A DNA stretch of 64,000 nt from Candidatus Latescibacterota bacterium (lineage in GTDB: Bacteria > Krumholzibacteriota > Krumholzibacteriia > WVZY01), in the NCBI GenBank assembly GCA_963791045.1, contig CAWBQK010000015.1, positions 128,001-192,000 of the forward strand. The letters run 5' to 3'. Numbering within the stretch: position 1 is the first letter of the stretch; each line of letters begins with the position of its first letter. A model generated the notes under the pieces. It was not told the DNA's origin and searched no databases. It saw nothing but the letters and a program-made list of their open reading frames with translations. A program made the translations under genes and the position numbers. This document shows positions 36,355-49,607 of this stretch, one piece after another.

Positions 36355-37134
36355 TCAGACGATTTTTGCCGCGGCAATTATTATAATCAACGTCGCCGTG
36401 ACAAACAAATAGTCGCGCTGAGTCGGCCGATCCAGTATCAGTATGTTTCCAATCGTTGTCTTGACGTCGCGGAGTTCGACGGCCATCGCCAAATGCTCCG
36501 AGCGATGGATCGCCGACACAAACATGGGCACGAGAAGGAGCCTGGCGCCTCTGAGCTTGCTCCCCAGTCCGCCCTCGAGCCCTCCCCCACGGAATTTCTG
36601 CGCTGTACGGACACGTTCGAGTTCATCCGCAAAGAGCGGCAGGAATCCGAACGACAAAAACACGTAAAGCGCAACGCGTCTCGCGAAATCCGGCGAAAAC
36701 GGGCGGAGAAACCCGGACAGACCTCGCGCCATTTCTTCCGGCGACACAACGGCAAGAAATACCACGGCGCCAAAATAGAGTATCAACACACGGACCGCGC
36801 TGTGGATCCCGCTTGTGATTCCCTCACGAGTAGGAATCGAAAAACCCGACACCAGAGACTCACCGCTCACCATCACCGCATTGATCGCGATTATGAGGAG
36901 AACAAAAGCGCCAATACTCTTTCCATTTTTAATCAGTGTTCTTATTGGAATTCCCGCCAGATGGGCGAGCATCAAAACGTATGCGAAGACGAATACCAGT
37001 CCGGGCGTCTGCGGGATGACAAATGCGGACACCGTTATCAAAAGAAAACCGGCGATGAGAAACCTCGGGTCGCCGGCAATAAACCTGGCGGGCCCCGTGC
37101 GGTTCGCCGGGTTGTATAGATGATGCTTCATCAT
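36355..37134 (-). CDS. ECF transporter transmembrane T component (EcfT/CbiQ family)
   Basis: DPR motif, several TMs, coupling helices AQKFRG and AMAVELR. Confidence 0.85.
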   Translation of the reverse strand: MMKHHLYNPANRTGPARFIAGDPRFLIAGFLLITVSAFVIPQTPGLVFVFAYVLMLAHLAGIPIRTLIKNGKSIGAFVLLIIAINAVMVSGESLVSGFSIPTREGITSGIHSAVRVLILYFGAVVFLAVVSPEEMARGLSGFLRPFSPDFARRVALYVFLSFGFLPLFADELERVRTAQKFRGGGLEGGLGSKLRGARLLLVPMFVSAIHRSEHLAMAVELRDVKTTIGNILILDRPTQRDYLFVTATLIIIIAAAKIV

Positions 37135-38139
37135 CCGATCATCAGCTCGCCGATCTGGACGGAATTCGTGGCCGCGCCTTTACGGAGGTTGTCTCCCACG
37201 GCCCAGAACGACAGCGCGTGTGGGCGGGTCGTGTCACGGCGAAGCCGACCGACGAGGATGTCATCCCTGCCCTCGACATCGAGGGGCGTTGGTATTTCTC
37301 CCGTGTATTCGACACCCGGCGCGTCTTGCCACAGCTTGACCGCTTCGTCCACCGACAGCGCCGCCGTCAGCTCAATGTTAATCGACAGCGCGTGACCGAC
37401 ACGCGTCGGCACCCTCACGGCGGTCGGGACCACACACATCGCCACGCTGCCGAGAATCTTTTGGGTCTCTTCTACTATTTTCTCTTCTTCTTTTGTGTAT
37501 CCGGATTCCCTGACGTCTCCGATCACAGGAAAGCAGTTGAACGCGATCTGCTTGGGAAGAACTTTCGCTTCAATTGGTTTTTTCGCCGCGTCCGCCTCGA
37601 CTTGTGTTTCCAGTTCGTCCAGCAGATCTTTGCCCGCGCCGGAGACCGACTGGAACGACGTCACCACCACTCGCTCTATCGCGACGGCCCGGTGGATCGG
37701 CGCGAGCGCCATCACCAGCGCGACCGCCGCACAATTCGGACACGCGACAAGAGTTGATTCGGGGGTTACCAGCGAGCCGTTTATTTCGGGGACCACCAGT
37801 GGAACGTATTCGTCCATTCGATACGCCGTGGTGTTGTCAACGACGCGACACCCTGCCTCCACCGCTTTTGGCACGAGCGTCTCACTCACCCCTGCGCCCG
37901 CCGTAAAAAACCCGATGTCTATTCCTTTGAAATCAATTTCGTCCACGGTTCGAACCGGCCAGGTGTTTCCGAATGCCTCGACGGTTTGACCCTTCGACGC
38001 CTGCGTCGCTATGGGCAAGAAATCCCCAACCGGGAAACTCGCGTTCTTCAAGTATCCGGGCTATCGTCAGGCCCACGACGCCCGTGCCGCCAACGACGGC
38101 AACTGTTTTGCTTGAATTCTTTTTGTTGTCGTTCGTCAT
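37131..38139 (-). CDS. asd: Aspartate-semialdehyde dehydrogenase, split by a 1-nt frameshift near 38031-38037
   Basis: Rossmann motif VAVVGGTGVVG..LEEREFP in ORF 37933-38139; PNC, QSVSGAG, VRVP..GH and DNLRKGAATN in ORF 37131-38051. Removing one base in TTTCCC joins them. Confidence 0.9.
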
Positions 38140-38250
38140 GTCTTTGTGTGGGTGGGGGGCTTTCTTTTTTCCCGATTTGGACGGCCGGCGTGTGGCCCTG
38201 TTGTTTTTTGCTTGTTTTTGTCCGGCGAGAACACGCCTTTGTTGTCATGC

Positions 38251-38280
38251 ACCGTATCACAGAATTTTTGTGTGTGTCAA
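38251..38280 (-). promoter_or_regulatory. Candidate sigma70 promoter for the asd operon
   Basis: TTGACA-N18-TACGGT with a TGn extension, about 110 nt upstream of the asd ATG. Confidence 0.45.
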
Positions 38281-38658
38281 TCATGGGCCAGACGGCCGGT
38301 TTCCGGGGTCTGCTTTGGCTCCATATCGCTCATCGCACGCGCGCTGGCGTGGATGCTGCGGCGGCCGCCCTCTTCCGCCGGATCGGCACTGTCTTTTTGT
38401 CGGTCATCTTCCGGCGAGCTTATGCCGCGCGTATGCCGCTTATGCCGTCGTAACTTTTTTTGTTCTCGGTTGATTTTCCAGAAGTTTTTTCTTGACGGTT
38501 TTTTGAACGCAACTTTTTGCGGGCTGTGATCGTGTCGTGTTTTTGTGTTGTACGCCTGTCTATGCGTGATGTCGGCGTCTTGATTTTATCGAGACGTTTT
38601 TGTTTTGTTGGGTCGTGTTATGCTTTGTCGCGCGTCGTGCGAACGCCAAAAACCCTCG

Positions 38659-38687
38659 TGTTATAATGCTAGTGTAACCATGGGAGG
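38659..38687 (+). promoter_or_regulatory. Extended -10 promoter and RBS of the HNH gene
   Basis: TGtTATAAT at 38659-38667; GGAGG at 38683-38687 ahead of ATG 38691/38694. Confidence 0.65.
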
Positions 38688-40052
38688 TTGATGATGATCG
38701 CACGTGAACAACTTCGTCTCAAGAAGCTCTCCGACAAGACACTCCTCCAGTCGCTCGACTCCCTCGTCGGAAAAGAAAAGAACTCGACCCTCGCCGTTCT
38801 TCTTCATTTGATCGAACTCGATCGCCGGCGAACGTATCTCAGTCTTGGATTCCGTTCGCTCTTCGAGTACTGCACCCAGCATCTCAAGTACTCATCCTCT
38901 TCCGCGGGACGCCGTATCCATACGGCACGGTGCGTCGCTCGTTTCCCTGAGATCTACGAACTTCTCGTCAAAGGATCGGTAAACCTGAGCACCGTCTCGC
39001 AGGTCTCGGCGATTTTGAACGAGAGAAACAAGGATGAACTTCTCAGGGGGATCCAGGGCAAGTCCCAGCGTCAGGTCGAGCGTTTAATCTCGGTGTTTCA
39101 GCCGCCGTCGGCGTATCGCGATACGGTGAAGCCCGTTCGCGTGGCCGTCGCGGCGAAACCACCGGAATCCGGAACGCCCACGGCTGCCATGGCAACTCGC
39201 TCGGTCTTTGCCGTGACCTCGGTGACCCATAAAACCACGACAGAGCCTGGATTGGCGACCGACCCGGCCGGCGGTCAAAACTGGACCTCTTTGTCCAATT
39301 CCTCCCGCAGCGGGAGTAAACCGACTAATGGGTATATGGTGCAATCGAAAGCACACACACAAGATACGCCATCCGCCGGTGATTCTGCCGCCAATGAAGC
39401 CGCGGATTGCGGGGCAAAAAGCTGTTACGAGCAAAAGCTTCTGATCCGGTTTTTGGCGAGTTGTGGCTTCAAGAAGAAGTACGACGAGGCCTGTTCACTC
39501 CTGTCGAACCGATTGCCCAATCAAACCTTTGAGGCGGTCTTCGAAGTCGTACTAGATGAGTTCATCGATCGGCACAGCCCGGAGGCGCGCCACAAACGAC
39601 GGGAGAAACGCCGGACCAAGAAGCTCGAGGAACAAAACGAGAAACAAGATCGGGAACCCAAGCGCAAAGAAAAGACTGACGCGGACAAACGACGAAACGA
39701 TAAGCAGAAACCCACGGGAAAAGGAGGGGCTGTCGGGAACGAACGACGAACAGAGAAGCGGCAGCCCGCTATTGCTCGTATGGGCGCCGAAAACAAACGC
39801 GCGCGACACATCCCTGCGGCCGTACGAGACAACGTGTTCAAGCGCGACGGTGGGAAGTGCACGTTCATCGGCAAAGATAACAAACGCTGCAACTCGACTT
39901 GGGGGCTCGAGATCGACCACATCAAACCATTCGCGCGGGGCGGCGGGAACACTAGAGAAAACCTGAGGCTTCTTTGCGGGAGACATAATCGTCTGGCCGC
40001 CGAGAAGGTTTACGGCAAAGGGTTCATGAAAGGGCACTACAAGAGAGAATAG
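38688..40052 (+). CDS. HNH endonuclease with DUF222-like helical N-terminus and low-complexity K/R/E linker
   Basis: C-terminal R.IPAAVR..V..RDGGKC..C..LEIDHI.P.A.GG..ENL.LLC..HN. N-terminal LSD..L..LV..E..HL.E.D.RR..GF.SLF.YC..L.YS..A.RR is typical of dispersed stand-alone HNH genes. Confidence 0.88.
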   Translation: MMMIAREQLRLKKLSDKTLLQSLDSLVGKEKNSTLAVLLHLIELDRRRTYLSLGFRSLFEYCTQHLKYSSSSAGRRIHTARCVARFPEIYELLVKGSVNLSTVSQVSAILNERNKDELLRGIQGKSQRQVERLISVFQPPSAYRDTVKPVRVAVAAKPPESGTPTAAMATRSVFAVTSVTHKTTTEPGLATDPAGGQNWTSLSNSSRSGSKPTNGYMVQSKAHTQDTPSAGDSAANEAADCGAKSCYEQKLLIRFLASCGFKKKYDEACSLLSNRLPNQTFEAVFEVVLDEFIDRHSPEARHKRREKRRTKKLEEQNEKQDREPKRKEKTDADKRRNDKQKPTGKGGAVGNERRTEKRQPAIARMGAENKRARHIPAAVRDNVFKRDGGKCTFIGKDNKRCNSTWGLEIDHIKPFARGGGNTRENLRLLCGRHNRLAAEKVYGKGFMKGHYKRE

Positions 40053-40247
40053 ATGTGGCTCGATTTGGAGACCGGCGCCGGGCATGCAAGCGCACAGCAG
40101 ACCGCAATACCACCCCAACGGCAAAAAGAACAACTGCTTGACACTTTTCGAGTTGGCATGAAATAGTCAGGCAGCCGAAACACGCCAGACCAGGATTCCG
40201 AACCGCGTCAAAAACCGCCCGGTTAACAAGAGGATACGAGGCCAAAA

Positions 40248-42242
40248 ATGAAAAAATATATTTTGGGTGTCTGTGTGGTTGCCGTACTGATTACCCAAAC
40301 CGTCCTGTCGTCCGCACAGGATCCGAGCCGGTATCAGTCACTCCTCGCGACGTCGGCCGGTCGGGACAGCCTGCTGAACCTTGCGATGTGGGAAGACGGC
40401 CGTGTCACGGGGAACGGCAGACTCTTCAGATACCTGCAATCGGCGAATCCGCTGATTCGATTCCGTACGGTCGAAGTCATCGGGCGAATTCAGGATCCCC
40501 AGGACGTTCCAAAACTCCTGCCGATGCTCAAAGACAATAATGAAAGCGTCGTGCTCGCAACGGTGTTCGCACTCGGGCAAATCGGGTCCGAAGAAGCGAC
40601 GCCCGGTCTGATCGAGTTGAACAAGAAAGCAACTCCGGCGAAGCAGATAATCATCGCGGACGCCCTTGGTAAGATCGGCGGAGAGGAAGCCTTGAAAACC
40701 CTGGATCTGATGCGGGGCGCGTTCAAATCGAATGTGCGGGCGGCAGCCATGGAGGCGTTCGCGCGTGCCGCCGACCCTCAAACGGTCCAGATGGTCCTGG
40801 CTGCGGTACACGACGGTGACCCGGAGGTAATCTGGCGGGCGGTTTATGCACTCGAAAAGTTTGAGACCGACCGGACCGCGTCTGCGGTCATCCCCTTGCT
40901 GGAACACAAAGACGCAACGGTACGGGCCTTCGCGGCACGCACACTCGGCAAGCAAAAGATCGATCCGGCCGTGGGCTCGCTTGTGGCCACACTCGACGAC
41001 GATGACATCCGGGTGGTAATAAACTCCATCAACGCGTTGGGACAGATCCTTGAAAACTCGAACAACGAAGACGTGATGTCGACACTGGGCCAAATTCTCG
41101 CGAAGCACCCGAACCATCATGCGCGAAAAGCGGCGGCCACCGCCCTGGGCAGTATGGGCAACAAAAACGCCCAGGACTACCTGGTTCAATCGGTGCTCGA
41201 CAAGAGCCCGGGCGTTCGTATCGAATCATACAAAGCGCTCGCCATGGTTCTCGACGAGCATGCCACACCGTTCATCGCGGGCGGCCTCAACGACGGCCAA
41301 AAACTCGTGCGGGCGGCAGCCATCGAAAGCTATGGAATCGCCGAAGACAAGAACAGGATCAACTATCTGATCGACATCACCCGAAAAAACAAGGACCCGA
41401 TCCTGCGGGCGGCCGCTGTAAGGAGTCTATCGCATTTTGACGAGGACGAGGTTGAGGCATGCCTCGTCGAGAAGCTCTCCGACGAGGACTGGGTCGTCGC
41501 GACCGAAGCGGTAACGGGACTCGGGGCAATTGACGAAAAAAGGACCATCCCAGCGCTGATCGACACGTACGGAAAGAGAACAGACCGCCTCGATGTCGAT
41601 GTGCGCCTGGAAATTCTCCGCGTCCTGAAGGATTTCGAAGCGGAGGAAGCCCAGCAGCTCGCCGTCGAAGCTTTGGATGACGCCGACCCCCGGATCCGCG
41701 CCGCCGCGAAAGAGCTTCTTGAAGGGATCGGGGCGCCGGTGCCGGAAATCATGAGCGACCGCGATTTCTATGAAGAAGATTTTAACCCGCGCCGCAGGAG
41801 TGAGCTTTCACTCCCCTTTGGAATACGGCGGGCCATCATCGAGTGCAAGCACGGGGAGTTCGAGATTGAACTGTTCGGAGACGACGCAACGCAGACGGCG
41901 ACGAATTTTATCAAACTCGCGGAATCCGGCTTTTACGACAACCTCACGTTTCATCGGGTCGTTCCGAATTTCGTCGCCCAGGGTGGATGTCCCCGCGGCG
42001 ATGGCTGGGGAGATCCCGGTTACACGATCCGCTCCGAATTCAACGCCTATCGGTATGAGCGCGGGTTTGTCGGCATCGCGCACTCAGGCAAGGACACCGG
42101 CGGCTGCCAGTTTTTTGTGACGCATTCGTATCAACCGCGTCTCAACGGCCGCTACACAATATTTGCAAGGGTGACAAAGGGGATGGATGTGGTCGACAAG
42201 ATCGATCAGGGAGATACTTTCAAGGTTCGTATCCTCGAATAA
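40248..42242 (+). CDS. Exported HEAT-repeat protein with C-terminal cyclophilin-type PPIase
   Basis: Signal peptide; repeated D.D..VR..A..ALG units; FHRVVPNFVAQGG, QFF, YTIF. Confidence 0.9.
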   Translation: MKKYILGVCVVAVLITQTVLSSAQDPSRYQSLLATSAGRDSLLNLAMWEDGRVTGNGRLFRYLQSANPLIRFRTVEVIGRIQDPQDVPKLLPMLKDNNESVVLATVFALGQIGSEEATPGLIELNKKATPAKQIIIADALGKIGGEEALKTLDLMRGAFKSNVRAAAMEAFARAADPQTVQMVLAAVHDGDPEVIWRAVYALEKFETDRTASAVIPLLEHKDATVRAFAARTLGKQKIDPAVGSLVATLDDDDIRVVINSINALGQILENSNNEDVMSTLGQILAKHPNHHARKAAATALGSMGNKNAQDYLVQSVLDKSPGVRIESYKALAMVLDEHATPFIAGGLNDGQKLVRAAAIESYGIAEDKNRINYLIDITRKNKDPILRAAAVRSLSHFDEDEVEACLVEKLSDEDWVVATEAVTGLGAIDEKRTIPALIDTYGKRTDRLDVDVRLEILRVLKDFEAEEAQQLAVEALDDADPRIRAAAKELLEGIGAPVPEIMSDRDFYEEDFNPRRRSELSLPFGIRRAIIECKHGEFEIELFGDDATQTATNFIKLAESGFYDNLTFHRVVPNFVAQGGCPRGDGWGDPGYTIRSEFNAYRYERGFVGIAHSGKDTGGCQFFVTHSYQPRLNGRYTIFARVTKGMDVVDKIDQGDTFKVRILE

Positions 42243-48047: not shown

Positions 48048-49607
48048 TCAAACCCGCCCCCCCCGGCTCCGAAGCCCCCAGAGGATCCAGCCAAAAACCA
48101 TCAGAATCGAGGCGAGCAGAAGAGGCACGTCGCCATATCGAGTGTAAAGTGTTGTCTCGTCGAGGGTGTAGATTTCATCAATGAGGATTCCCTCCCGGTT
48201 CATCCCGAAGTCGGCGACGACGTGTCCGGTGGGGCCGACAATCATCGTCACCCCGGTGTTTGCGGACCGGACGAGGAACCGGCGATTCTCGATCGATCGA
48301 AGGATCGCCATGTCGTTGTGCTGGTGCGGTCCCGGTGTACCGCCGAACCAACCGTCATTCGTTATGTTGATAAAAACTTCGGCGCCTCTCCGCGCCGCCT
48401 TTCGCGCAGGCCCGGGAAAGATCGATTCAAAACAAATCAGCGGCGCCAGATTTCCGATCTTTGACGGGATCGGTTTGCGTTCCGGCCCCGGCTGAAAATT
48501 GGCCTGGCCAAAATCGATTTTCTTGAGCCACCTGAATTTCCACGAAAAAGGGAATGTCTCCCCGACCGGAAGCAGGTGCTGCTTGTCGTACAGGGCGAGC
48601 GTCCCTCCCGGATACAAAAGCCCCGACGAGTTGTAAACGTTGAGATCCCCTTCGGGCCCGTCGTAGCGGCCGTCAAGAAAACCGATATACAACTCGACCC
48701 CCAGTTCCGCGACAAGATTCTGAAGCATGGGGCGATAGGTACGGTTGTGGCGAAGATATACCGGGGCGCACGTCTCGGGGAAAATTATCAAATCCGGGTC
48801 GAAACCCGCCGCACTGCGGCTCAGCCTGTCAATAAGTCTGAACGTGGAATCGGTGAACTCAGGCTTCCATTTCAATGCAAGATCCACGTTGGGTTGAACT
48901 ATCGCGATTCTGCTTTTAGTATCGGGAACGCTCGAATCCAAACGGGCGATCGTTCGCCGGCCGAGCGACACGTTGATCGCCACAAGGATAAGACCTGCGG
49001 CGACAAACGCCGTCTTGCGGTTAACACTTTTCGTGAGGAATGCTCTGCCCCACAGCATGTTGACGAAGACAATCCACGCGCCGACACCGAGAACACCGTA
49101 GATCGCCGCGCCCTGCGCCATCGAGGGAAACCTCGCGAATGCATGTCCGATACCCGCCCACGGAAAACCGAGCTCTCCGTTCGAACGAAACCACTCGATA
49201 AGCACCCAAAGGGCCGGCGCCAAAAGCGGAATCGAAAGCTTGTGCCCCCTGCCTATCAAGCGCAGCAGCCAGAAAAACAGCCCCGGGTAGACGGCAAGAT
49301 ACAACACGATCCCCGCGACGGCGGGCCCCATCAGCCACGGAATCCTGATACTCGACGCATCGGATAACTCGACGATCCACCAGAGATGTGCGAGGAAAAA
49401 CGAACACCCGAATATATAACCCGTCTTAAAAAAAAGACGCGGACCGCGGGGAACGCGATACAAAGCAAAGATCATTGGCGAGAGGGCAACGAGGGCGATG
49501 GGACCGTATGAAAATGGCGGAAACGCCAGGGCGAGCAACGCGCCCGAGCCCACGGCGGGGAGCAGGAGTGAAAGCGGAGGGAACCATTTCAAGGGCGAGC
49601 GTCTCAT
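48048..49607 (-). CDS. lnt: Apolipoprotein N-acyltransferase
   Basis: GFPW, QPN, PE, YDKQHL.P.GE, ICFE, TNDGWF. Confidence 0.95.
   Translation of the reverse strand: MRRSPLKWFPPLSLLLPAVGSGALLALAFPPFSYGPIALVALSPMIFALYRVPRGPRLFFKTGYIFGCSFFLAHLWWIVELSDASSIRIPWLMGPAVAGIVLYLAVYPGLFFWLLRLIGRGHKLSIPLLAPALWVLIEWFRSNGELGFPWAGIGHAFARFPSMAQGAAIYGVLGVGAWIVFVNMLWGRAFLTKSVNRKTAFVAAGLILVAINVSLGRRTIARLDSSVPDTKSRIAIVQPNVDLALKWKPEFTDSTFRLIDRLSRSAAGFDPDLIIFPETCAPVYLRHNRTYRPMLQNLVAELGVELYIGFLDGRYDGPEGDLNVYNSSGLLYPGGTLALYDKQHLLPVGETFPFSWKFRWLKKIDFGQANFQPGPERKPIPSKIGNLAPLICFESIFPGPARKAARRGAEVFINITNDGWFGGTPGPHQHNDMAILRSIENRRFLVRSANTGVTMIVGPTGHVVADFGMNREGILIDEIYTLDETTLYTRYGDVPLLLASILMVFGWILWGLRSRGGRV

Follow-up and report, generated by a model that had tools for sequence, protein, structure and literature searches.

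A multi-copy DUF222-like/HNH cassette between asd and a HEAT-cyclophilin gene of a Latescibacterota genome, and the probable sources of its strand-composition flip

We analysed a stretch of 64,000 nucleotides (nt), here called the window, from a genome of Candidatus Latescibacterota bacterium (assembly GCA_963791045.1, contig CAWBQK010000015.1, positions 128,001 to 192,000). In this window a gene for a stand-alone HNH nuclease lies between asd, which encodes aspartate-semialdehyde dehydrogenase, and a gene for a HEAT-repeat/cyclophilin fusion, and the strand composition flips across it from T-rich on the left to A-rich on the right. A preliminary description of the window had ascribed this flip to the nuclease itself, as the trace of repeated cutting, resection and deamination. 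The reading we favour, and consider probable, is a different one: the locus is one copy of a self-contained, multi-copy cassette of the REP13E12 kind that encodes a DUF222-like/HNH protein, and the skew is not a scar of resection and deamination. Direct support exists for the repeat structure with its ends, for the insertion polymorphism, for the mosaic identity of the copies, for the architecture of the protein domains and for the skew being inherited.

A repeated unit of leader and ORF at eight loci

The HNH gene has 18 protein matches at eight loci of the same genome, a metagenome-assembled genome (MAG) that is a draft with 81% completeness and 5.8% contamination. We named the eight copies by contig, i.e. 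C15 (the window copy), C13a, C13b, C9a, C9b, C2, C11 and C1. The repeated unit measures about 1.6 kb and consists of a T-tract-rich leader of 200-265 nt and the open reading frame (ORF). It starts 203 nt before the ORF in the window copy and in C13a, and 250-265 nt before it in the other six copies; the 3' end lies about 5 nt past the stop codon, and homology with the paralogs ends at about 40057 of the window. Past these ends DNA similarity among the copies is absent, save for residual similarity over about 40 nt on the 5' side (mean z 2.0 in the 40 nt beyond the core), where C13a and C9a share about 70 nt more. The downstream flanks show no residual similarity at all (mean z 0.09 over 28 pairs). 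The exact ends of the cassette are uncertain by a few tens of bases. A hidden Markov model (HMM) of the leader, run with nhmmer, matched the eight copies and one solo fragment in the genome, and nothing else. The solo fragment corresponds to the 5' part of the leader, lies on contig C15 at 216491-216587 (E 1.9e-8) and has no adjacent match to the HNH ORF.

According to the ORF tables, three of the eight copies look intact (the window copy, C9a and C1), and the remaining five are split or carry stop codons. Assembly error may underlie the broken copies, as asd is also frameshifted in this assembly. When C15 and C9a are compared by segment, their leaders are 82% identical, their N-terminal regions 67% and their C-terminal regions 88%. 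This pattern suggests sequence exchange between copies, with assembly chimeras as a further possibility.

The preliminary description had noted neither a transposase or methylase nor terminal repeats, and we came to the same result: neither enzyme, nor an integrase, is encoded within about 5 kb of the HNH gene, and no terminal inverted repeats or target duplications are seen at the cassette. It contains no end-to-end inverted repeat, its only ORF is that of the HNH protein, and no direct repeat is shared by the flanks of the eight copies when inspected by eye. Thus, the features by which an insertion sequence or transposon is recognized (transposase or recombinase, inverted repeats and target-site duplication) were not found here.

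The unit is also delimited in other genomes. In a Krumholzibacteria genome the same combination of leader and ORF is repeated, with homology from about -270 to -280 relative to the ORF (-405 in one pair), and two loci of a further MAG (L079 and L094) share the unit from -259. Altogether 465 family loci in other genomes were confirmed, many of them at contig ends, and 80 were kept. The family occurs in 33 of 41 related genomes, often with many matches in each, and in all 23 genomes of the sister family; in the window's own family its distribution is patchy (5 of 12 genomes). The record titles place the relatives in Latescibacterota, Krumholzibacteriota, Eisenbacteria and similar uncultured groups.

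Comparison with related genomes indicates that the cassette has split a conserved divergent gene pair. Orthologs of the HEAT-cyclophilin gene are present in 40 of the 41 genomes searched, the source genome included, and we fetched this locus for 19 relatives, ten of them in the window's own family. In nine of these ten, asd and the HEAT-cyclophilin gene stand back to back without an HNH gene between them; in the tenth, the fetched flank contains no asd. The distance between the two -35 elements is 1857 nt here as opposed to 6-367 nt in the relatives (6 nt in two of them). About 1.6 kb of this spacer is taken up by the cassette, and about 160 nt on its left and 70 nt on its right are of unknown origin; neither the paralogs nor the leader HMM match the left spacer. 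On both sides the host promoters are retained. A strict pattern for the asd promoter is found in the window and in five of nine relatives, and a looser one marks the boundary in the window and all nine. The HEAT-cyclophilin promoter agrees with the consensus at 10 of 12 positions in a promoter scan, and its motif is present in the window, in nine of nine relatives and in the metagenome contig L137. In this contig (positions 1-371) the end of an HNH gene occupies the same position upstream of a HEAT protein with 83% identity, and the insertion is therefore older than the split between the two lineages. The window and L137 agree in the gene end and in the host promoter, but not in the 67-100 nt following the stop codon, which cannot be aligned. 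The locus hence displays a presence/absence polymorphism at a conserved host site, empty in nine relatives and occupied in L137. Sequence reads of four DNA runs gave contigs of 151-294 nt, one of which bridges the 3' end of the cassette into the right flank; no empty-site joint was found among them. In light of eight paralogous units and the absence from nine of ten relatives, the element does look selfish, as had been proposed; the mutagenesis of its own neighbourhood that formed part of the same proposal did not hold up (see below).

As previously described, the surroundings are of a housekeeping type, with purB-like, HtrA-like, truA, CbiQ and NUDIX genes as neighbours in addition to asd and the HEAT-cyclophilin gene (Table 1). 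The asd gene, which is the only asd in the assembly, carries a +1 frameshift near 38033-38045 that divides it into an N-terminal 68-amino-acid (aa) ORF (38139-37933) and a 306-aa ORF (38051-37131). Either an indel of the assembly or a true lesion in a normally essential gene could be the cause.

Table 1. Features of the cassette and its neighbourhood in window coordinates (nucleotide ranges of protein parts were converted from residue ranges; 5'UTR, 5' untranslated region; a dot denotes no strand)
Feature	Position	Strand	Remark
asd (aspartate-semialdehyde dehydrogenase)	37131..38139	-	Pfam Semialdhyde_dh, Semialdhyde_dhC
asd 5'UTR, host	38140..38249	-	A8 C23 G36 T45 as counted; sense A/C-rich, so + strand T/G-rich
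Conserved asd promoter block, host	38250..38280	-	pattern match in relatives
Left spacer, origin unknown	38281..38444	.	GC-rich, T>A; 38286-38484 = A20 C61 G59 T59
Cassette leader	38445..38693	+	T-tract-rich; core homology from 38485, residual to ~38445 (blastn, alignments)
5'-boundary motif	38492..38506	+	T run, then TTGACGG box, then T run
Near-perfect 21-nt palindrome (38576-38596) + T tract	38574..38608	+	terminator-like or candidate operator
Extended -10, TG + one base + TATAAT	38659..38667	+	invariant in 8/8 copies
Shine-Dalgarno GGGAGG	38682..38687	+	sequence
HNH nuclease ORF, 452 aa	38694..40052	+	ATG 38694; TTG 38688 abuts Shine-Dalgarno
DUF222-like / ParB-KorB-like DNA-binding domain (predicted)	residues 27-138 = 38772-39107	+	
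Disordered linker	residues 163-239 = 39180-39410	+	
Helical middle domain	residues 241-325 = 39414-39668	+	
K/R/E-rich charged stretch	~residues 300-366 = 39590-39791	+	
HNH domain	residues 367-447 = 39792-40034	+	
Tail + right spacer	40053..40124	.	past ~40057 origin unknown; L137 differs
HEAT-cyclophilin promoter + A-rich 5'UTR, host	40125..40247	+	-35 at 40138, second hexamer end 40167
HEAT-repeat/cyclophilin fusion	40248..42242	+	Pfam HEAT_2 1.3e-62, Pro_isomerase 1.2e-37

The encoded protein and its leader

The C-terminal part of the protein is matched by Pfam HNH (PF01844) with 28.3 bits at a cut-off of 21.4 (residues 400-432 of a 454-aa form), and the same model matches all 40 aligned homologs. 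In these 40 aligned sequences C389, C399, D408, H409, N423, H431 and N432 are invariant and C428 is nearly so; these comprise the catalytic and zinc residues, and the HNH domain is intact. An alignment of the homologs revealed three conserved blocks that are separated by two variable low-complexity linkers, the charged one differing in length. The AlphaFold2 model has the same outline. Its predicted local confidence (pLDDT; mean 77.5) is high at residues 1-160, 241-325 and 367-447, reaching about 92-95 in the HNH part, and the segments in between are disordered. Within the K/R/E-rich linker, two adjacent 54-nt segments (39655-39762) are 70% identical, which suggests that this linker grew by tandem duplication.

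The N-terminal domain resembles DUF222 (PF02720), with 17.4 bits (E 0.003) at a cut-off of 24.4. Nine of the 40 homologs match this model at E<=0.01, the best of them at 2.5e-8, and the N-terminal 150 aa alone retrieve 10,596 cluster representatives at E<=1e-3. Foldseek alone gave no structural match at E<=0.001. When candidates were realigned to residues 27-138, the top 13 rows all belonged to the ParB/Spo0J/Noc/KorB group (Z 9.3-6.9, root-mean-square deviation (rmsd) 2.4-3.7 A over about 100 residues). A search independent of Foldseek returned the same group with Z 7.5 to 5.0, led by ParB (6s6h; Z 7.5, rmsd 10.2 A) and KorB (Z 7.4, rmsd 3.4 A). According to the guidance for the tool, matches of helical domains with Z below about 13 may be due to their arrangement only. 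In contrast to ParB, KorB and Noc, the cassette protein lacks the N-terminal CTPase/ParB-N domain, shares only 9-20% identity with them and is fused to a nuclease. Residues 364-452 have the beta-beta-alpha metal fold, superposing on the HNH domains of the Gme nicking enzyme, McrA, phage GVE2 and IscB (Z 6.3-7.4), and for the middle domain (residues 241-325) only coiled-coil or bHLH-like helix matches were obtained (Z about 5). Searching the PDB by sequence yielded HNH-domain matches only, and PADLOC a single weak match at the HNH level (19 bits).

Upstream of the ORF, all eight copies share a set of short sites. The motif TTTTG occurs 35 times in the eight leaders, i.e. about 19 per kb compared with 1.6 per kb genome-wide (about 12-fold). 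The TTGACGG box of the 5'-boundary motif is present in every copy at -196 to -251 from the ORF. Among 47 family loci of other genomes, 12 have a loose form of it at -214 to -297, four of these copies being in a Krumholzibacteria genome, and a control search of the downstream 1 kb of those loci on both strands gave no match. A role of the box as a sigma-70 promoter was considered and rejected, as no usable -10 follows it in any subfamily. The extended -10 and the ribosome-binding site (RBS) that had been assigned to the HNH gene are indeed seen. Since the extended -10 has no good -35, it is absent from the list of the consensus promoter scan; a strong Shine-Dalgarno sequence is common to all eight copies.

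The palindrome scored in a terminator scan with 11 pairs followed by a T tract. Allowing up to three mismatches, the 21-mer occurs in five leaders and at no other site of the whole genome, which gives no support for a genomic target outside the cassettes; it is kept in four identical copies despite divergence of the adjoining leader. With regard to a possible SOS link, no LexA scored above the cut-off in this 81%-complete genome.

A further element, a segment of about 50 nt with an anti-Shine-Dalgarno sequence, is present in six copies and missing from the window copy and C13a. Its CCUCC motif lies upstream of the RBS in C9a, C2, C11, C1, C9b and C13b, and likewise in 24 of 51 family loci. Of 18 such leaders, 14 have the motif in the loop of a hairpin of 5-8 bp, the stem sequence of which varies between loci (by eye). 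This hairpin is probably a translational repressor. The motif, CCUCC(C), resembles the 3' end of 16S rRNA and sits upstream of a GGAGG RBS; loci with it include L066, L067, L069, L079, L094, L095, L104, L106, L111, L112 and L121.

The preliminary description had also raised the possibility that the leader encodes a cis-acting or a guide RNA. The first part has some merit for the family, where a cis-acting hairpin exists, although the window copy has lost it. The second part would imply that the leader of about 250 nt is a functional RNA that works with the nuclease, either as a guide similar to those of IscB/HEARO systems or as a small RNA of about 100 nt running from the 5' box to the hairpin. 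The resemblance to IscB/HEARO is real in several respects: about 250 nt of conserved non-coding sequence stand before the gene of an HNH nuclease, leaders of similar length are kept with the ORF across phyla, and the HNH domain resembles those of IscB and Cas9 (superposition on the IscB/HEARO type with Z 5.6-6.4). A -35-like box with an upstream A/T tract at the 5' end and a terminator-like hairpin about 90 nt past it would also suit a small RNA, yet a usable -10 is missing after the box. Moreover, an Rfam search of 37000-41000 at E<=1 gave no match in the leader and only two chance-level matches inside asd; the leader RNA of the window copy folds no better than shuffled sequences (z = -1.0); and, except for one 31-nt match, the leader DNA was not found in 40 relatives. 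In Pfam and NCBIfam searches the protein has no RuvC or PLMP part, and the NCBIfam model guided_IscB reaches 27.8 bits at a cut-off of 175, over residues 366-438 in the HNH region only. Neither a full-length IscB-type protein nor a structured omega or HEARO RNA was thus found, and in the cassette the promoter lies within the leader, just before the ORF. We consider a guide or small RNA highly improbable.

Sources of the strand-composition flip

The flip as such is real. Our recount reproduced the base composition reported for the + strand, with T24 G21 C11 A4 at 38521-38580 and A22 C20 G13 T5 at 40081-40140, and the whole of 38140-38690 contains A65 C126 G160 T200. When 200-nt windows are taken, 38100-38699 has an AT skew of -0.43 to -0.56; the value is about zero across the first 800 nt of the HNH ORF, +0.44 to +0.73 in the linker-coding part of the ORF (39500-39899) and about +0.3 in 40000-40299; the right flank (40053-40247) has A63 T26. 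For comparison, 500-nt windows of the whole 3.66-Mb assembly have a mean AT skew of 0.004 with a standard deviation of 0.12. An absolute skew above 0.45 is reached in only 75 of 72,935 such windows, which merge into 24 regions. The leader region is one of these 24 (contig C15 166051-166700, i.e. 38051-38700 of the window) and the linker of the window HNH gene is another, several paralog linkers being listed as well. The skew at this locus is far beyond chance.

One attribute of the flip had to be revised. It had been framed as T/G-rich versus A/C-rich; the skew is there, but its dominant component is T versus A rather than keto versus amino (left, T-A=135 and G-C=34; right, A-T=38 and C-G=8), and the left side has a purine fraction of 0.41, the right side one of 0.58. 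As had been said, the skew runs into the N-terminus of asd; it covers the first 11 codons only, the AT skew of 37900-38099 being 0.00.

Another of the 24 extreme regions lies elsewhere in the window, at 49051-49600 (AT skew +0.48). A minus-strand ORF of 519 aa has its hydrophobic N-terminal part here, a predicted membrane-like sequence, and the skew has an ordinary coding cause. The most extreme skew of the genome is found on contig C7 at 260451-261300 (AT skew to -0.77, GC skew +0.66).

The two strongest parts of the flip are inherited cassette sequence, present in copies at unrelated loci. In the five close copies, the first 100 nt of the unit invariably have an AT skew of -0.51 to -0.67, and the linker bin one of +0.67 to +0.91. 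The linker is made up of codons for K, R, E, N, D and Q, which explains its skew of +0.92 at codon positions 1 and 2; the third positions of these codons mostly cannot be T. In our reading the flip is a composite of four features that coincide by chance: minus-strand asd with an A/C-rich 5'UTR and first codons rich in K/N, the inherited T-rich leader of the cassette, the lysine, arginine and glutamate codons of the linker, and the A-rich 5'UTR of the HEAT-cyclophilin gene. The K/N/S-rich N-terminal extension of asd is also found in relatives, and the asd 5'UTR is skewed in the same direction, if more weakly (0.00 to -0.35), in eight of eight relatives measured. The HEAT-cyclophilin 5'UTR is A-rich and T-poor (A29 C25 G20 T6), with an AT skew of +0.66 here and +0.59 in L137.

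In the mutagenesis model that follows from the preliminary description, the nuclease repeatedly cuts near its own 5' end. Single strands laid bare by 5'-3' resection, the + strand to the left and the - strand to the right, would then undergo C>T and A>G deamination, which would write the flip. The geometry fits. Both host 5'UTRs are also more skewed than in cassette-less relatives and extreme for the genome, and A exceeds T downstream of all eight copies, a trend that decays over about 400 nt. The bookkeeping of bases is at odds with this model, though. A strand that undergoes C>T and A>G changes keeps its purine fraction, and T-A should then equal G-C. Because the purine fraction differs between the two sides, deamination of this kind cannot yield the observed flip, and neither side comes near the predicted equality. 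The right flank of L137 is A/G-rich (purine fraction 0.62), and arithmetic on the base counts of the right 5'UTR versus the pooled relatives indicates that A was gained and T lost with G almost unchanged.

The extent of the skew speaks against the same model. At third codon positions the HEAT-cyclophilin gene has an AT skew of -0.06 in its first 300 nt and of +0.14 to +0.36 in the next four 300-nt blocks, and in asd (sense strand) the nearest block has +0.17 versus +0.37 in the next. The skew stops at the start codons of both neighbours, and there is no third-position gradient toward the element. Furthermore, the strongest parts, leader and linker, are inherited or protein-coding. At 54 full-length family loci of other genomes the flanks are unskewed: the AT skew is -0.08 to +0.03 per 50-nt bin up to 600 nt downstream and -0.05 to +0.03 upstream beyond -300, the leader itself being mildly T-rich (-0.10 to -0.17). 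Three other copies served to polarise substitutions on the C15 lineage; the direction could not be assigned for 94 of 145 differences, and 22 changes were usable. Among these, C>T versus G>A amounted to 4:1 on the left and 4:3 on the right, and A>G versus T>C to 1:0 and 3:0, so that the spectrum does not flip between the halves in this small sample. Taken together, the model of resection and deamination is largely refuted by the composition, and we regard it as very improbable; deamination chemistry is not among the remaining explanations of the flank skew. Two of the checks that had been suggested for it gave no clean refutation. A weak flank skew is present at the paralogs of this genome, and in relatives without the gene the 5'UTR skews are weaker.

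Several observations weigh against our own reading of the locus as a REP13E12-type cassette with a skew of ordinary origin. The AT skews of the host 5'UTRs, -0.70 for asd and +0.66 for the HEAT-cyclophilin gene, compare with 0.00 to -0.35 (eight measured) and -0.19 to +0.40 (nine measured), respectively, in cassette-less relatives, and a sense AT skew of at least 0.6 occurs in only one of 1270 upstream regions of the genome. Skews as extreme as these are therefore not fully explained by ordinary leader composition. Since L137 has both the A-rich 5'UTR and the cassette, ancestry of the 5'UTR and an effect of the cassette cannot be separated. In this genome, A exceeds T in the downstream 100 nt of all eight copies, the pooled AT skew being +0.28, +0.19, +0.13 and +0.06 in successive 100-nt bins, and T exceeds A in the upstream 100 nt of seven of the eight. 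The downstream trend is accompanied neither by residual homology nor by a general bias after stop codons (-0.01, n=1183). On the side of the protein, the DUF222 match of the window copy falls under the Pfam cut-off, and the ParB-like match is middling for a helical domain and should be taken as a lead, not as proof. As the genome is a draft MAG, frameshifts and mosaic copies could in part be assembly artefacts, and the polarised substitutions comprise only 22 changes. Binding and cleavage by the protein and movement of the cassette are what we infer from sequence and predicted structure.

A number of simple causes of the flank skew were rejected. The left flank is not a decayed leader, as the leader HMM finds nothing in 38140-38484, and the lack of similarity between the downstream flanks dismisses decayed cassette sequence there. 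Neither is the upstream region of genes generally A-rich (sense AT skew 0.02 +/- 0.19 in the upstream 100 nt of 1270 ORF-genes) nor the 3' region generally T-rich (-0.01 +/- 0.21 in the downstream 100 nt of 1183). A convergent gene follows at five of the eight copies, according to a simple longest-ORF call without family support, and coding-strand bias is therefore no obvious explanation of the downstream trend. Three candidates are left: a preference for certain targets, element ends that went unrecognised, and an influence of the element over a short range.

The first two of these candidates can be combined in one alternative, by which the skew reflects either a preference for, or retention at, landing sites that have T tracts to one side and A tracts to the opposite one, or fast-evolving distal parts of the element that can no longer be aligned. 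It would account for the direction of the skew at the copies of this genome, for the fuzzy 5' end with its 40 nt of residual similarity and the longer match between C13a and C9a, and for the stretch of 67-100 nt after the stop codon that differs completely between the window and L137 while both of its sides are conserved. Yet the downstream flanks have no similarity to each other, 48-52 family loci elsewhere have no downstream skew, and the most skewed parts of the window flanks are host 5'UTRs. We deem this alternative unlikely.

The third candidate corresponds to an autonomous 'bind, nick, copy' element that leaves a short-range, strand-asymmetric A/T bias in its flanks by a route other than deamination. 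In such a scenario the 5' TTGACGG box and the 21-nt palindrome would be the sites recognised by the ParB/KorB-like domain, and the HNH domain tethered to it would introduce nicks in their vicinity. Repair of these nicks would both propagate the cassette and keep its copies alike. This would account for the excess of A downstream of all eight copies as well as for the skewed 5'UTRs of asd and the HEAT-cyclophilin gene; we rate it as rather improbable.

Relation to known elements and proposed mode of action

The closest known kind of element is the REP13E12 or 13E12-repeat family of DUF222-HNH genes in M. tuberculosis and other Actinobacteria, of which we take the cassette to be a member in other phyla. 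The mycobacterial 13E12 unit is about 1.4-1.6 kb long. As in that family, an N-terminal DUF222-type domain and a C-terminal HNH domain are encoded in a repeated unit. In Mycobacterium tuberculosis, REP13E12 loci are described as gene-conversion hotspots without a defined function (PMC13061034); they coincide with inversion breakpoints and are cited as DNA-damage-induced (PMC13157036), and they are counted among the repetitive elements of the species (PMC10589994). The two kinds also agree in having several copies per genome, some of them broken, no associated transposase and a function that is undefined; exchange of sequence between copies, known from the mycobacterial repeats, is suggested here by the segmental identity of C15 and C9a. 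Literature searches for DUF222, REP13E12 and the 13E12 repeat found no functional study of the DUF222 domain among the papers listed. Differences concern the hosts, which according to record titles are Latescibacterota, Krumholzibacteriota and Eisenbacteria; the DUF222 score of the window protein; and the link to a prophage attachment site, of which nothing was seen here. The cassette leader has a 5' box, a palindrome, an extended -10 and often a CCUCC hairpin, and the mycobacterial repeat was not searched for a leader of this type.

The tie of 13E12 proteins to inversions and DNA-damage induction in M. tuberculosis (PMC13157036) invites the alternative that the element is not selfish and that the host keeps a stress- or damage-induced, site-specific nuclease which promotes recombination or inversions between copies, a role proposed for the mycobacterial 13E12 proteins, the copies themselves having been gained by ordinary duplication. 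Presence in all 23 sister-family genomes and in 33 of 41 overall would be in line with this, and so would the tight translational control via the CCUCC-loop leader in many members. A gene maintained for the benefit of the host is, however, difficult to reconcile with its patchiness in the window's own family (5 of 12 genomes), with five of eight copies being split or interrupted by stops, with the repeat-like location of copies at contig ends and with sharp unit ends that enclose a promoter of their own; no LexA was found with which to check the SOS link. We therefore look upon this alternative as improbable.

In its mode of action the cassette would be most like a free-standing homing-type nuclease gene, with inferred cleavage and copying. 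Free-standing HNH homing endonuclease genes are known from the I-HmuI type. With these the cassette shares a DNA-binding domain tethered to HNH, its own promoter, a site between conserved host genes and a presence/absence polymorphism among relatives. Unlike the I-HmuI type, it occurs in eight copies at unrelated intergenic sites instead of one cognate site, has no sequence similarity to it past the HNH motif and no known cleavage site.

Returning to the favoured reading of a self-contained REP13E12-type cassette, we propose the following course of events. In an ancestor of the lineage the cassette would have inserted itself where the asd and HEAT-cyclophilin promoters lie back to back, in the spacer that separates them. 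It would have brought along its complete layout, i.e. the T-tract leader with 5' box, palindrome, extended -10 and strong RBS, followed by the single ORF, and the terminator-like palindrome would block read-through. The ORF is predicted to encode a sequence-specific helix-turn-helix module of the ParB/KorB-like type, two disordered linkers, the second of them K/R/E-rich, and the HNH domain. The protein might bind a cognate DNA site and nick or cut nearby, and such lesions could cause the cassette to be copied or to undergo gene conversion, in the manner of homing or of REP13E12-type recombination.

The findings also hold a caution for the interpretation of nucleotide skews. A mirror-image skew can arise when ordinary features such as a leader, a charged linker and the 5'UTRs of neighbours line up, and a count of purines and pyrimidines alone can exclude an origin by deamination. 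DUF222/HNH repeats are widespread, with more than 10,000 cluster representatives for the N-terminal domain alone, and this lineage offers a compact, delimited version of about 1.6 kb with defined ends, conserved leader sites and natural empty and occupied alleles. Also of use are the CCUCC hairpin, as a probable translational control in many members, and the predicted ParB/KorB-like fold. With a defined unit, leader sites, a predicted fold and both alleles at hand, the binding, nicking and copying that we propose for this family are therefore directly testable.

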